Below the pieces are notes generated by a model, which was not told the DNA's origin, did no database searches, and saw only the letters and a list, made by a program, of their open reading frames with translations. From a virus, in UHGV virus genome UHGV-0221571: DNA of 17,382 nucleotides; one strand, given 5' to 3'. Positions 6,854 through 14,302 of this stretch are shown here, piece after piece (within the stretch, counting starts at the first letter, position 1; the number at the start of each line of letters is the position of its first letter). Position numbers and translations under genes: made by a program.

Positions 6854-7783
6854 ATGGCAAACACTGCTGAGATATTCAATTTTCCAGTGCCGGATGTGGC
6901 ACAAAAGGAGCGGCGCGTGGCAGATCTCGACGATGGTTATACGCGCATTGCAAATGAGTTGCTGGAAGCTGTGATGCTGGCCGGATTAACACAGCACCAG
7001 CTTCTGGTCTTCCTGGCTGTCATGCGCAAAACATATGGCTTTAATAAAAAACTGGATTGGGTGAGCAACGAGCAACTTTCCGAGTTGACCGGGATATTGC
7101 CGCACAAGTGTTCTGCTGCAAAAAGTGTTCTGGTAAAGCGTGGGATTTTTATTCAGAGCGGGCGGAATATCGGCATTAATAATGTGATCAGTGAATGGTC
7201 AACATTACCCGAATCAGGTAAGAAAAATAAAGTTTACCTGAAAGAGGTAAATTTACCTGAATCAGGTAAGAAAAGTTTACCCAAATCAGGTAAAGGCGTT
7301 TACCCGAATCAGGTAAACACAAAAGACAAACTAACAAAAGACAATATAAAACCTTTTTCGTCCGAGAATTCTGGCGAATCCTCTGACCAACCAGAAAACG
7401 ATCTTCCTGTGGAGAAACCAGATGCTGCAATTCAGAGCGGCAGCAGGTGGGGGACAGCAGAAGACCTGACCGCCGCAGAGTGGATGTTTGACATGGTGAA
7501 GACCATCGCGCCATCAGCCAGAAAACCGAATTTTGCAGGTTGGGCTAACGATATCCGCCTGATGCGTGAACGTGACGGACGTAACCACCGCGACATGTGC
7601 GTGCTGTTCCGCTGGGCATGCCAGGACAACTTCTGGTCCGGTAACGTGCTAAGTCCGGCCAAACTCCGCGACAAGTGGACCCAACTCGAAATCAACCGTA
7701 ACAAGCAACAGGCTGGTGTGACTGCCAGCAAACCAAAACTCGACCTGACAAACACTGACTGGATTTACGGGGTGGAGCTATGA
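6854..7783 (+). CDS. O: Replication initiator O
   Basis: From ATG 6854 (GGGAGGA upstream) the product MANTAEIFNFPVPDVAQKERRVADLDDGYTRIANELLEA... parallels the lambda O N-terminus. Iterons lie inside the gene. The track ORF begins earlier at 6764 (ATGA overlap with the upstream stop); the start is ambiguous. Confidence 0.85.
   Translation: MANTAEIFNFPVPDVAQKERRVADLDDGYTRIANELLEAVMLAGLTQHQLLVFLAVMRKTYGFNKKLDWVSNEQLSELTGILPHKCSAAKSVLVKRGIFIQSGRNIGINNVISEWSTLPESGKKNKVYLKEVNLPESGKKSLPKSGKGVYPNQVNTKDKLTKDNIKPFSSENSGESSDQPENDLPVEKPDAAIQSGSRWGTAEDLTAAEWMFDMVKTIAPSARKPNFAGWANDIRLMRERDGRNHRDMCVLFRWACQDNFWSGNVLSPAKLRDKWTQLEINRNKQQAGVTASKPKLDLTNTDWIYGVEL
7209..7320 (+). repeat. Origin iterons inside O (ori-lambda-like)
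   Basis: Four to five direct repeats of roughly TTTACCyrAATCAGGTAAg with ~23-bp period (starts near 7210, 7234 degenerate, 7256, 7280, 7303), followed by an A-rich tract at 7321-7360. Confidence 0.7.
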
Positions 7784-8466
7784 AAAATATTGCCGCGCAG
7801 ATGATTAACTTTGACCGTGAGCAGATGCGTCGAATCGCCAACAACATGCCGGAACAATACGACGAAAAGCCGCAGGTGCAGCAGGTGGCGCAGATCATCA
7901 ACGGTGTGTTCAGCCAGCTGCTTGCGACATTTCCGGCAAGCCTCGCGAACCGCGACCAGAACGAGCTGAACGAAATCCGCCGTCAGTGGGTTATGGCTTT
8001 CCGTGAAAATGGAATTACCACTATGGAGCAGGTTAACGCCGGAATGCGCGTGGCCCGCCGACAGGAGCGACCATTCCTGCCGTCGCCCGGCCAGTTCGTA
8101 GCGTGGTGTAAGCAGAGTGGCGGGGCGTTAGGTATCACTGTTGACCAAGTCATAACCGAATACTGGGATTGGCGTAATCGTTCCTTCGAATTCACTTCCA
8201 GCGAGCATTTCCCGTGGTCACAGCCTGTCATGTACCACATCTGCGTCGAACTGCGCCACCGTAGCATTGAGCGCCAGTTAACGCATGGCGAGCTGGCATG
8301 CGAGGCTGGTGACCTGCTGGACATGTGGGAGAAGCGCGTCAGTGAGGGCAAACCAATCCCTCCGGTCAGAAAACAAATCTCGGCTCCGCGCCACGTGCCC
8401 GGGCCGACTCCCGCTCAGCTTTTGCTTGAGCAATACAAAGCGCGTAAAGCAGTCGGATTTATTTAA
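7780..8466 (+). CDS. P: Replication protein P (DnaB helicase loader), lambda-like N-terminal half with a divergent C-terminal half
   Basis: MKNIAAQMINFDREQMRRIANNMPEQYDEKPQVQQVAQIINGVFSQLLATFPASLANRDQNE... closely matches the lambda P N-terminus. ATGA overlap with the O stop. Confidence 0.9.
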   Translation: MKNIAAQMINFDREQMRRIANNMPEQYDEKPQVQQVAQIINGVFSQLLATFPASLANRDQNELNEIRRQWVMAFRENGITTMEQVNAGMRVARRQERPFLPSPGQFVAWCKQSGGALGITVDQVITEYWDWRNRSFEFTSSEHFPWSQPVMYHICVELRHRSIERQLTHGELACEAGDLLDMWEKRVSEGKPIPPVRKQISAPRHVPGPTPAQLLLEQYKARKAVGFI

Positions 8467-8468
8467 CC

Positions 8469-9053
8469 ATGAACAAGAAATACACGTTGATCTAAGCGGA
8501 TCCGCCCTGGACGTACGAGGATAAATGCAATTCTGGTAAGCGTGGCACCGGGCATAAATACTTGGTTATGACGGTGCAGGATATCTGCTGGCTGCCAGTA
8601 AGGGAGCGGGTTGCAGAAAGCTGCCAGCTGGCGATGTGGTGGTTGCCAACTCAAACGTTCGAGGCGATGAAAGTCGTCGATGCCTGGGGATTTCGCCTGA
8701 TCACAATGAAAGGTTTCACTTGGGATAAAACCTACCCGAAGCAAACTGACAAATCGGCGATGGGAATGGGACACCTGATCCGGGCGAACCGTGAAGATTG
8801 TCTTTTCGCGGTAAAGGGTAAGCGGGCACCACAGCAGGACGCCTCGATCATCCAGCACTACACCTCGCCGCGACATGAGCACTCACGTAAACCAGACTGC
8901 GTGCGTGAAATGCTGGTTCGGTTGCTGGGTAATCTTCCACGTATTGAGCTCTTTGCGCGTAAATCCTCCCACGGTTTCGACGTATGGGGAAACAAGTGTG
9001 ATTCGCCAACCGTATCATTAAGCCCGGCCCGAGTTACTGATGTTTATTCTTAA
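8469..9053 (+). pseudogene. MT-A70-type DNA N6-adenine methyltransferase interrupted by an in-frame stop at codon 9
   Basis: ATG 8469 gives MNKKYTLI, then TAA (8493-8495), then in frame ADPPWTYEDKCNSGKRGTGHKYLVMTVQDICWLPV...EHSRKPD...ELFARKSSHGFDVWGNK. The stop sits where this family has a conserved Tyr (IYADPPW). The track ORF (8562 onward) starts with TTG and lacks the DPPW motif. Confidence 0.6.
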
Positions 9054-9264
9054 AAGAATTAACTGAAAAGAGGAAGGTTTGATGAGTTTTTTTACGTGAA
9101 TTAACACGTAAGACTGCTGGTTATTAAACCATCACATTAGATATCTAAAAATTGTGATCGGTATCTCCCTACTATAAAAAAAAGTAGTTGAATATACGGT
9201 CTATACTTGAAATAAATAAAAGTATTCTTATTTTTTAGATTCTGTGTTGTGAAAAGGAATTTTT

Positions 9265-10296
9265 ATGTCCTCGAATATTTTATCTGGTGAAAAAGTAATC
9301 AATAAAATTGCTGAAAAGTTGAGCGATTATAAATATCCTCCGGCTGAAGGTATGAACTCTGAACATGTCAGCAAATGGATTAAGCAATTTGCAGTGGAGG
9401 ATAGACGATTTATCTTAGATGAAACGCTTTATCTACTTAATGCAGGTTACCTATCCGAAAGTCAATATCAACGAAAAATAAAAGCCATTGCAAGAAGTGA
9501 AAAGAACGCGAAATTCTTCAGATATGCAGGTTTTTTAGATATTCAAAAAAAAGGTTCTAGTCAGAAGGAATTGCTTAAATCTCTTTATGAAACAGTAGGG
9601 ATCAAATTTAACATCGTTACTGAATCATCAACTCAAGATGAAGTAAATAAATTTGATACATTTGTATATATTGATGATGTGTCGTTTTCAGGAGAAAAGG
9701 CCATCAAATCGATAAGTAATTTTGTTTTAAAATTTAATTTAAGAGATATTAAATTCAATGTATATTTTTTTTCATCTCATACGTTATCTGACTATAATAT
9801 AAAAAGACGATTAGAATATATTTTTAAGGATAGAAACATTTTTGTACACGTGAAGAATGGTGGTATGCGTGAGGTTGAAAACCGAAAAAGTCGTTCTGCT
9901 CAATCAGGTGTTTTCTGGCCAAGGAAATATAGTGTAGATACTCCCGAGAAATTCGAGGAGTGTGAGCTTTACAAAGGCGTATTCAGAGATGGATATGCCT
10001 CTTCTGATAGTTTTAGAAATGAAGCCTCAAGGGATCGTTTCGAATCTATCCTTACTAAAGTCGGCTTTAATATCTTGCTGCACAGGAAAACCCCTAGTGA
10101 GGTGCTCAAACCTCTAGGTTTTTCTACTTTTGACGGTTTGGGTTTTGGGGGAACAACATTTACTTATCGAAATTGCCCGAATAATGTGCCGCTGGCTTTT
10201 TGGTGGGGAGATTATGAACCAACAGGTGCTCCCGCATTGGACTGCTGGTATCCACTAATGAAGCGGAATGGGTATAATGAGTGGTATGAGCTATAG
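9265..10296 (+). CDS. Hypothetical 343-aa protein, AT-rich cargo gene; possible PRTase-type nucleotide-binding motif
   Basis: ATG 9265 with AAGGAA upstream in an AT-rich intergenic region. The stretch TFVYIDDVSFSGEK (res 132-145) resembles the PRPP-binding signature of type I phosphoribosyltransferases. No other family recognised. Translationally coupled to the NADAR gene. Confidence 0.6.
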   Translation: MSSNILSGEKVINKIAEKLSDYKYPPAEGMNSEHVSKWIKQFAVEDRRFILDETLYLLNAGYLSESQYQRKIKAIARSEKNAKFFRYAGFLDIQKKGSSQKELLKSLYETVGIKFNIVTESSTQDEVNKFDTFVYIDDVSFSGEKAIKSISNFVLKFNLRDIKFNVYFFSSHTLSDYNIKRRLEYIFKDRNIFVHVKNGGMREVENRKSRSAQSGVFWPRKYSVDTPEKFEECELYKGVFRDGYASSDSFRNEASRDRFESILTKVGFNILLHRKTPSEVLKPLGFSTFDGLGFGGTTFTYRNCPNNVPLAFWWGDYEPTGAPALDCWYPLMKRNGYNEWYEL

Positions 10297-10897
10297 ATTA
10301 TATCCGCTACAGAACACAGTTTCCTTCAGGAAAACCACCGAAAAATGGGGGGGGCTTTCCAACATGGCTAAAGGATATCCATTGTTAATCAATGGGTTGC
10401 CTATTCAATCAAGTGAAATCCTTTACCAAGCATGCCGATATCCAGACTATCCGGATATACAAAAGGCCATCATTACTCAAGGAAACCCCTATGAAGCCAA
10501 GCAGACCGCAAGATCGTTTGAATCCAAAACTCGCGCAGGATGGGATAAGAATCGAGTTTCGATTATGAAGTGGTGTGTATGCGTAAAATTATGCCAGAAC
10601 TGGGATACGTTCTTTGCGCTGTTAGACAGTACAGGCGACCATTTCATCGTGGAACACTCAGAGAAGGACCAATTCTGGGGTGCCAGTAAAGACCCAGAAG
10701 GTAACTATTATGGTATGAACGTATTAGGGCGAATTCTCATGGACGTGAGAGGGGTTGCTAGGAAAAAGGGGGCTGATGGGTTTGCAACAATACCATCGCT
10801 ATCTTTGGACAAATTTTTTCTCCTAGGCGAAAGAATTAAAGATGTAACATTTGTAGAGCCAACGCCTGGAGCAGGGCAAAGTTTATCCTTGTTTTAG
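10268..10897 (+). CDS. NADAR-domain (YbiA-like) protein
   Basis: Matches to the NADAR/YbiA blocks: GGLSNMA, INGLPIQSSEILYQACRY, AGWDKNRVSIMKWCVCVKLCQNWDTFFALLDSTGDHFIVEHSEKDQFWGA...GNYYGMNVLGRILMDVR. Start uncertain (ATG 10268, 10277 or 10286); all overlap the upstream gene. Confidence 0.8.
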   Translation: MGIMSGMSYRLYPLQNTVSFRKTTEKWGGLSNMAKGYPLLINGLPIQSSEILYQACRYPDYPDIQKAIITQGNPYEAKQTARSFESKTRAGWDKNRVSIMKWCVCVKLCQNWDTFFALLDSTGDHFIVEHSEKDQFWGASKDPEGNYYGMNVLGRILMDVRGVARKKGADGFATIPSLSLDKFFLLGERIKDVTFVEPTPGAGQSLSLF

Positions 10898-13219: not shown

Positions 13220-14302
13220 TTAGAACTGGTAAACCATACCTACAGCAACGATATCATCGGTAGCAACGCCAGATGCTTTCGTGAAATCGCTCTTATCAAT
13301 CAGGTTGATTTTGTAGTCAACAAAAGTGGACATATTTTTGTTGAAGTAATAGGTTGCACCTACATCAACATATTCAACCAGGTCCTGATCACCCCAAACA
13401 CCCAAGTCTTTTCCTTTAGAATGCAGGTAAGCAACGGATGGACGCAGGCCGAAGTCGAACTGATATTGTGCAACAGCTTCGAAGTTTTGTGCTTTGTTGG
13501 CAATATGGTTATTACCAAAAACAGTCATGTTCTGGGTTTCAGAATAGGTGGTGGCCAGATAGATGTTGTTCGCATCATATTTCAGACCAGCTGCCCATAC
13601 TTCAGCATTTTGACCAGAAGCATTCAGACCGTTGTTACCGTAGATAACCTGATTATTAGTGCGATCAGATTTAGCATAGGTTGCACCCACGCCGAATCCT
13701 TCATACTCATAAGTAGTTGAGAAACCGAAACCATCGCCATTAGCTTCAGTTACTTCATTTCGGTCATTTTTGCCCTGATACTGAGCTGCAAAGTTCAGGC
13801 CATCAACCAGACCAAAGAAGTCGTTGTTACGATAAGTTGCAACACCTGTGGTGCGACCAGTCATGAATACATCTGTTTGGGTCCAGGTATCGCCACCGAA
13901 TTCTGGCAGAACGTCAGTCCACGCACCGATGTCGTATGCTACACCGTAGTTACGGCCGTAATCGATTGAGCCGTAGTCACCGAATTTCAGGCCTGCAAAT
14001 GCAAGACGGGTTTTGTCTTTGGAGGAACCTTGAGATTCAGCGCGGTTGCCTTTGAATTCATATTCCCACTGACCGAAACCAGTCAGTTGATCGTTGATTT
14101 GGGTTTCACCTTTGAAGCCAAGACGGGCATAAGTAGTATCACCATCATCTGCATCATTAGAGGAGAAGTAGTGCTTAGCATTAACTTTCCCGTACAGATC
14201 CAGCTTGTTACTGTCTTTATTATAAATTTCAGCTGCCTGAGCAGACATCGCCATCAGTACTGATGCAGCTACAGCAGAAATTGCCACTGTTAATTTTTTC
14301 AT
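13220..14302 (-). CDS. nmpC: Outer-membrane general porin (OmpC/OmpF/PhoE family), prophage NmpC/Lc-type
   Basis: 360-aa product with signal peptide [23 protein letters not shown]|AEIYNK and C-terminal ...VAVGMVYQF ending in Phe. Typical porin sequence throughout. Sits between Q and the lysis genes as in DLP12. Confidence 0.9.

Follow-up and report, generated by a model that had tools for sequence, protein, structure and literature searches.

A prophage MT-A70 family methyltransferase gene of Escherichia coli, interrupted by a stop codon ahead of its catalytic motif, is probably a non-functional remnant

Introduction

Does the reading frame that follows replication gene P in the early region of a lambdoid Escherichia coli prophage still provide an active methyltransferase, or is it the remnant of one? 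The window analysed here, a stretch of 17,382 nucleotides of virus genome UHGV-0221571, represents such an early region with exo-bet-gam, a SIR2 gene, a CI-like repressor gene, YdaS, YdaT, O and P. The gene order after P is the pseudogene studied here, PRTase-CE, NADAR, ybcN, ninE, rusA, Q, a porin gene and the lysis genes. An earlier note, made from the sequence alone, regarded the frame after P as an MT-A70-type DNA adenine methyltransferase gene inactivated by a single in-frame TAA, and proposed a recent nonsense mutation, a sequencing error or expression by stop-codon suppression as its explanation.

Results and Discussion

Structure of the locus and family assignment

The features of the locus are compiled in Table 1. 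Gene P terminates with a TAA at 8464-8466, which is followed by the dinucleotide CC and the ATG of the pseudogene at position 8469. This spacing of 2 nt, in line with the earlier observation that the ATG comes right after the P stop, places the pseudogene in the early-right operon. Its translation reads MNKKYTLI, meets the premature TAA and continues in the same frame with ADPPWTYEDK; the frame 3' of the stop is open for 185 codons up to the TAA at 9051-9053, precisely as the approximately 185 codons counted before. The DPPW motif corresponds to codons 11 to 14, and D11, P12, P13 and W14 are near-invariant in the alignment of the family; it is still encoded but, being located 3' of the stop, not translated from ATG 8469. 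The motifs HKY.VMT..LPV, EHSRKPD and ELFARK..G.DVWGNK, which had been named as hallmarks of the family, were all found and occupy invariant or near-invariant columns. Positions 8496-8505, directly after the stop, form a perfect 10-bp palindrome, GCGGATCCGC, a BamHI site that contains a Dam GATC site. It was rejected as a signal, for in an intact relative (L006) ADP is encoded by identical bases, which makes the palindrome a by-product of coding.

Table 1. Coordinates of the pseudogene, its diagnostic positions and neighbouring genes in the window
Feature	Positions	Strand	Basis or remark
SIR2-domain protein, 535 aa	3453-5060	-	Pfam SIR2_2, E=1e-23; PADLOC PDC-S25, E=2e-235
Lambda-type replication gene P	7780-8466	+	Pfam PF06992 Phage_lambda_P, E=2.7e-48
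MT-A70 family methyltransferase pseudogene	8469-9053	+	194 codon positions and a final TAA; stop at codon 9
Premature TAA, codon 9, at the family's conserved Tyr (TAT/TAC) position	8493-8495	+	translation, homolog alignment
DPPW codons GAT CCG CCC TGG, MT-A70 catalytic motif	8499-8510	+	3' of the stop
Internal Met34 ATG ORF, 161 aa, without DPPW	8568-9053	+	called "MT-A70 family protein" by several pipelines
Derived A, Pro63 to Thr	8655	+	post-stop; column 98% Pro; other TAA alleles retain CCG
Derived A, Phe131 to Tyr	8860	+	post-stop; Phe in other TAA alleles and in aligned intact relatives
PRTase-CE	9265-10296	+	Pfam, E=6e-39; weak PADLOC match to PRTase_III-A
NADAR-domain protein	10268 or 10286 to 10897	+	PADLOC PDC-M42C, E=1.5e-8
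OmpC/NmpC-type porin	13220-14302	-	Pfam Porin_1, E=4e-152; opposite strand, between antiterminator Q and holin

With Tyr put at codon 9, the translation matches the Pfam MT-A70 profile PF05063 with 81.6 bits (cut-off 23.9; E=8e-23), residues 5-175 of the protein covering profile positions 1-171 of 172. The PADLOC model for Type II methyltransferases (MTase_II, PDLC03262) recognizes the product with E=6e-67, no NCBIfam model matches it, and a protein search retrieved 1045 homologs at E<=1e-3. The pseudogene belongs by descent to the MT-A70 methyltransferase family. The column of the stop is occupied by Tyr in 120 of 124 full-length homologs and by Leu in the remaining four, which bears out the expectation of a Tyr before ADPPW. 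Five intact relatives (L004-L007 and L011) have TAT or TAC at codon 9, and a single third-position transversion, as had been supposed, therefore accounts for the TAA. Comparison with orthologs gave no indication of a natural downstream start, the 124 intact homologs beginning at the same M..KYTLIYADPPW. The uninterrupted frame from the start through DPPW and the C-terminal motifs that characterizes a functional enzyme is broken at codon 9 in the window. An endonuclease gene, expected next to the methylase of a restriction-modification system, is not adjacent, the neighbours being P and PRTase-CE/NADAR; since the intact MT-A70 relatives are likewise solitary, the gene is of the orphan methylase type.

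Distribution of the interrupted allele

A megablast search with positions 8400-9100 against 5426 complete E. coli genomes detected the locus in 19 of them, always with at least 99.7% identity and in 13 cases with 100%. TAA is present at codon 9 in all nine complete genomes that were inspected directly, which cover every variant but E92, and ten further complete genomes are 100% identical over 8400-9100. The tally of 27 other copies, from which E92 was left out, thus comprises 17 codon-checked copies (nine complete genomes and eight other contigs) and the ten identical ones; all 27 carry TAA and none TAY. The DNA pattern ACGTTGATCTAHGCGGATCCGCCCTGG, which spans codon 9 and admits TAA, TAC or TAT, was moreover scanned against metagenome, GTDB-representative and IMG/VR collections. 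It matched four metagenome and six IMG/VR contigs, 10/10 with TAA, and had no match among the GTDB species representatives; two more contigs with the P0123-type allele have TAA too. The nonsense mutation in a prophage gene proposed by the earlier note is hence confirmed, and RefSeq PGAP flags it independently: in all eight records opened the locus is annotated as an "MT-A70 family methyltransferase" pseudogene with "internal stop", so that its status is already known.

An intact allele was found neither by megablast against phage records nor by protein search, exact-sequence look-up or cluster listing. The repaired 194-aa sequence is missing from a collection of 15 billion proteins, from which no intact protein above ~82% identity was retrieved; the closest full-length proteins show 79-82%. 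The nearest entries in the protein search (P0001 and cluster members P0121-P0134) are 161-aa calls that begin at Met34; their cluster comprises 24 member sequences, five of which alone occur on 366 contigs. The one longer member of the cluster, named "MT-A70 family methyltransferase" (P0128, WP_437439595.1, 189 aa), was considered as the intact form and rejected, its first ~13 residues being unrelated to the family and standing in place of KYTLI*ADPPWTYED, without DPPW; probably it represents a further rearranged version of the dead gene that was missed by pseudogene flagging. The stop is fixed in this lineage and older than the common ancestor of every allele sampled. The nonsense mutation is accordingly "recent", the term used before, only in a relative sense, given a stop older than this ancestor and the lack of an intact allele in these searches.

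Evolutionary constraint on the gene

Among the 101 alignment columns that are at least 90% conserved in the 124 intact homologs, the pseudogene departs from the family at 15, namely A27T, R41W, W45R, L47R, A48V, L53Q, V59L, P63T, L67M, T104I, S108R, P120A, R122Q, D155N and V156L. Intact homologs deviate in the same columns at 2.44 positions on average (sd 2.23), the closest intact relatives at one or two, and a single one of the 124 reaches 15. The score of the repaired protein against a family HMM is 334 bits versus 379 +/- 15 for intact homologs, i.e., 3 SD below; it ranks third lowest of 125 and lies ~40-44 bits under its nearest intact relatives (373-378), with a slight bias in favour of the intact homologs, on which the HMM was trained. 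The retention of family-conserved residues that is typical of a functional enzyme is thus not seen in the columns, the HMM score or the SNPs described below. Two supposedly intact homologs, P0100 and P0118, score 326 and 325 bits with 15 and 10 conserved-column deviations, respectively, and may be decaying or mis-called as well.

Relative-rate counts point in the same direction. The broken branch accumulated 26-30 private amino-acid changes versus 2-13 on its intact sisters, and synonymous changes are similar (26-27 versus 13-23); the topology of the underlying tree is uncertain and polarity was taken from the family-wide consensus. Pairwise omega versus intact relatives is ~0.08 in every pair, which implies that purifying selection acted during most of the history of the lineage and that the relaxed phase came late and was comparatively short. 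With dS saturated at 1.15-2.0, pairwise dN/dS was dropped for timing and replaced by the relative-rate, conserved-column, HMM-score and within-allele SNP tests.

The polymorphism of the interrupted allele itself consists of four nonsynonymous SNPs (P63T, H102Y, F131Y and S183A) and one synonymous SNP (G26G) among 18 copies. The corresponding nonsynonymous to synonymous ratios of the controls are 2:21 for P and 18:33 for O. The contrast has a one-sided hypergeometric p of ~0.03, and at the family omega of 0.08 the probability of at least four nonsynonymous changes out of five is ~0.009, both calculated by hand and based on small counts (five sites in the pseudogene). Two of these changes can be dated relative to the lesion. 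Five copies (L008, L009, L016, L019 and L024) combine the TAA with the consensus residues Pro63 and Phe131, and Thr63 and Tyr131 of the window therefore arose after the stop. Our results show that the gene evolves without constraint at the protein level.

The claim of a single lesion does not hold, considering 15 further changes at near-invariant positions and a raised omega on the broken branch. The proportion of single-base changes that create a stop in the MT-A70 ORF is 4.8%, so that about one stop is expected from the ~20-25 neutral substitutions which the excess of changes implies, in agreement with the number seen. The TAA may hence be one neutral hit among several and not the first inactivating event. 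The 185 codons after the TAA contain neither a frameshift nor a further stop, which is slightly unexpected after ~20 or more neutral substitutions. The lack of frameshifts argues for a neutral phase of limited length, or for divergence that in part accumulated while the gene still worked. Some of the unusual residues could accordingly reflect functional divergence before the stop and not decay.

Two candidate second lesions were discarded. The frame breaks of L015 are single-base deletions in a contig of 1.5x coverage and probably represent read errors. L012 (QZME01014045.1) diverges after ~8816 into unrelated, Gram-positive-looking ORFs (locus ~965-2294), one of them with an LPxTG-like cell-wall anchor typical of Gram-positives, and is probably a chimeric assembly.

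Prophage context

In strain CT29, the one genome checked in this respect, the prophage occupies the DLP12 attachment site at tRNA-Arg (argU), beside intD, and appears almost complete as far as the tail genes. The "decaying prophage" assumed by the earlier note is thus a description that does not fit all carriers. In the ETEC strain 504239 (L001) the prophage is rearranged: its integrase, next to which lies an IS3-family transposase gene, and its rrrD are truncated, and the segment with Q, porin and lysis genes has been inverted. In most E. coli it is ybcK-ybcM that separates ybcN from the replication genes. The location of the porin gene between Q and holin is an arrangement that the window shares with DLP12.

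The carriers, which include isolates from humans, birds, mice, frogs and cattle, have mosaic prophage backgrounds. Their O gene and the 5' part of P are polymorphic, and the segment from ~7963 through the pseudogene is nearly invariant. The 5' quarter of P (7788-7962) has 20 clustered synonymous SNPs and one nonsynonymous SNP among the carriers of the broken allele, and 7963-9053 is almost invariant. This pattern of variation points to a recombination breakpoint inside P at ~7963. The broken gene is carried along in a block that is young and poor in diversity, within mosaic prophages.

The PRTase-CE and NADAR genes overlap and are separated from the pseudogene by an intergenic spacer of 211 bp. 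The pair always accompanies the broken methylase, one RefSeq record names the PRTase-CE gene product a "phosphoribosyltransferase-like anti-phage protein", and a reverse transcriptase was not seen near the two genes. The pair looks like a two-gene defence cassette. A functional link between the methylase and PRTase-CE/NADAR was rejected, because the intact relatives have different downstream genes and the methylase is therefore not part of this unit. The SIR2 gene is located between the kil/gam side and the CI-like repressor gene, and PDC-S25 is a PADLOC candidate defence family. Other carriers have a DGQHR-domain gene at this site or no SIR2 gene listed, and the site looks like a variable defence-gene slot beside the immunity region.

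Comparison with characterized relatives and the question of the substrate

The closest studied relative is the enzyme M.EcoPA8orf6770P (gp5) of the Stx2a phage phiPA8, which alone exhibits a weak, non-specific activity on DNA or RNA, and prefers 16S rRNA together with the adjacent protein PNB-2 (PMC10810198). M.EcoGV of E. coli O104:H4, a prophage MT-A70 methyltransferase, is "highly similar" to it (PMC10810198). Replacement of DPPW by APPA abolished the function of the Stx-phage relative, and short forms that lack the last 27 residues and occur without PNB-2 are present in non-STEC strains (PMC10810198). The repaired protein has 64% identity over 192 aa to the methylase of the Stx phage TL-2011b, which served as a proxy for the M.EcoPA8orf6770P group, the equivalence of the two being inferred. 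The window's gene shares with M.EcoPA8orf6770P and M.EcoGV the Pfam family, the N-terminal KYTLIYADPPW and the status of an accessory gene of lambdoid prophages. It differs in length and location: the Stx-phage protein has 220 aa including a C-terminal extension of ~26-27 aa and its gene lies near the integrase, whereas the window's protein ends at 194, corresponding to the short form, and its stop-broken gene follows P. The extension is present in P0010, P0013, P0015, P0016 and TL-2011b and absent from the window's protein. The ORF upstream of the TL-2011b methylase gene, assumed to be PNB-2, has no homolog in the window (tblastn E=6). Of two features of the Stx-type holoenzyme, a C-terminal extension and an adjacent PNB-2 gene as represented by this ORF, neither is thus found here, and the upstream gene is P.

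More similar are intact short MT-A70 genes (P0136, P0002 and P0004; L004-L007) that encode 194-199 aa with 72-82% identity to the window's product and are located, like it, directly after a replication or helicase-loader gene. They retain Tyr9 (TAT/TAC), have 1-2 deviant columns and score 373-378 bits, compared with 15 columns and 334 bits for the window; their downstream genes differ and none has the PRTase-CE/NADAR pair. The eukaryotic MT-A70 enzymes METTL3 and the ciliate MTA1 complex (PDB 7f4r, 7f4l) have the same domain with its DPPW motif, and sequence matches to solved structures were obtained for 7f4r (E=2.9e-10) and METTL3 (E=2.4e-5). Both are multi-subunit writers of m6A in RNA or DNA, and identity is low; the match informs about the fold only and not about the substrate.

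Of the designation "MT-A70-type DNA adenine methyltransferase" in the earlier note, the family assignment stands with PF05063, and DNA as the substrate was an assumption. Because the closest studied relative prefers 16S rRNA, "DNA adenine methyltransferase" is a label and not a result. If the short form were a GATC methylase, it would presumably duplicate an activity of its Dam+ host, and the relaxed selection would be accounted for.

Explanations of the gene loss

Taken together, the locus is most likely the non-functional remnant of a small stand-alone prophage MT-A70 adenine methyltransferase gene on which constraint is relaxed, a reading based on comparative sequence data to which we assign a probability of about 0.86. 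Its intact relatives in lambdoid prophages are located right after the replication genes. In this lineage of a DLP12-type prophage, a TAY-to-TAA transversion at codon 9 terminates translation after MNKKYTLI and before the catalytic DPPW, so that an active enzyme cannot be made. As the cause we infer that purifying selection ceased to act on an accessory gene of the early operon, one that would be under repression in lysogens and possibly redundant where the host is Dam+, in a prophage that would mostly be inherited rather than replicate lytically.

The most serious alternative agrees that the product is a dead gene and regards the nonsense allele as adaptive, i.e., selected since the lysogen or prophage would profit from losing the methyltransferase, e.g., through less spontaneous induction or through avoidance of toxic or restriction-provoking methylation. 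In Stx phages, spontaneous induction and virulence are both increased by the homologous enzyme and decreased by the natural knock-out with IS629 in phiPA2 (gp5::IS629) (PMC10810198). The phiPA2 allele is likewise a natural loss-of-function MT-A70 allele of a prophage that persists in wild E. coli; its lesion is an insertion with a measured phenotype, whereas that of the window is a nonsense codon known from sequence. The broken allele is, moreover, the sole form found of its lineage, across varied hosts and mosaic prophages. However, the gene is part of a CI-repressed early operon and should be silent in a stable lysogen, and the Stx-phage effect requires PNB-2, for whose candidate ORF the window has no homolog. 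Fixation of one allele in a block of such low diversity (5 segregating sites in 585 nt) is equally expected from hitch-hiking with the PRTase-CE/NADAR cassette. We therefore consider an adaptive knock-out improbable, and its specific version by analogy with phiPA2, a "domestication" that would lower spontaneous induction as IS629 does, as slightly more doubtful still.

A truncated protein with a non-catalytic role, initiated at Met34 (8568) or at TTG 8562, is very unlikely. Gene callers predict the 161-aa ORF, and it is open in all clean copies. Nevertheless, it lacks the first strand and, without DPPW, cannot be catalytic; a Shine-Dalgarno-like sequence is missing upstream of 8568, the SNP ratio is neutral-like, and the post-stop change P63T, and in some alleles H102Y, strike conserved residues inside the ORF. 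In-frame ATG or GTG codons are lacking from the interval that separates the stop from Met34, and the earliest in-frame start past the stop, a TTG at 8562, precedes Met34 by two codons and is likewise located beyond DPPW. Promoter or terminator signals above those of shuffled controls were not detected in 8200-9400.

Even less credible is a leaky or recoded stop that would allow for low-level synthesis of the full-length enzyme by ochre suppression, readthrough or frameshifting. The open downstream frame and the intact DPPW are compatible with it, and a dose-sensitive enzyme could in principle be held at a trace level. The window, however, has no tRNA gene and consequently no suppressor tRNA, folding of the RNA at the stop and 3' of it is no better than that of shuffled controls (z=-0.51), and shifts by +1 or -1 at AUC-UAA-G do not regain the DPPW frame. 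The stop context is UAA-G, and UAA followed by G is a site of efficient termination in E. coli. The absence of a tRNA, this context and the lack of RNA structure speak against the stop suppression that the earlier note had considered. In addition, the SNPs 3' of the stop, 4 nonsynonymous to 1 synonymous with conserved residues lost, give no sign of purifying selection.

A sequencing or assembly error at a true TAC or TAT, for which nothing speaks but the prior that single-base errors happen, is practically negligible and was dismissed, as the same TAA recurs in the 17 codon-checked copies and ten identical complete genomes, a set that comprises complete genomes of various laboratories and sequencing platforms as well as contigs from metagenomes and IMG/VR, and as downstream-start 161-aa calls of the TAA allele occur on 366 contigs for five cluster members alone.

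Implications

By itself the locus matters little, being a prophage pseudogene that was correctly spotted and is flagged in RefSeq. Where pipelines annotate a 161-aa "MT-A70 family protein" with Met34 as its start, they name a dead fragment as a protein. With the substrate of the family contested between DNA GATC and 16S rRNA, methylome predictions derived from the label "DNA adenine methylase" are unsafe. For revertant experiments it is relevant that the stop is accompanied by many other changes at conserved positions of the gene, due to which a TAA-to-TAC revertant may stay inactive. A domestication knock-out, if true, would account for the fact that nothing but the broken form of this lineage is encountered in many unrelated E. 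coli hosts, and an adaptive loss, if true, would represent a second natural example that ties the MT-A70 methylase family to the control of prophage induction.
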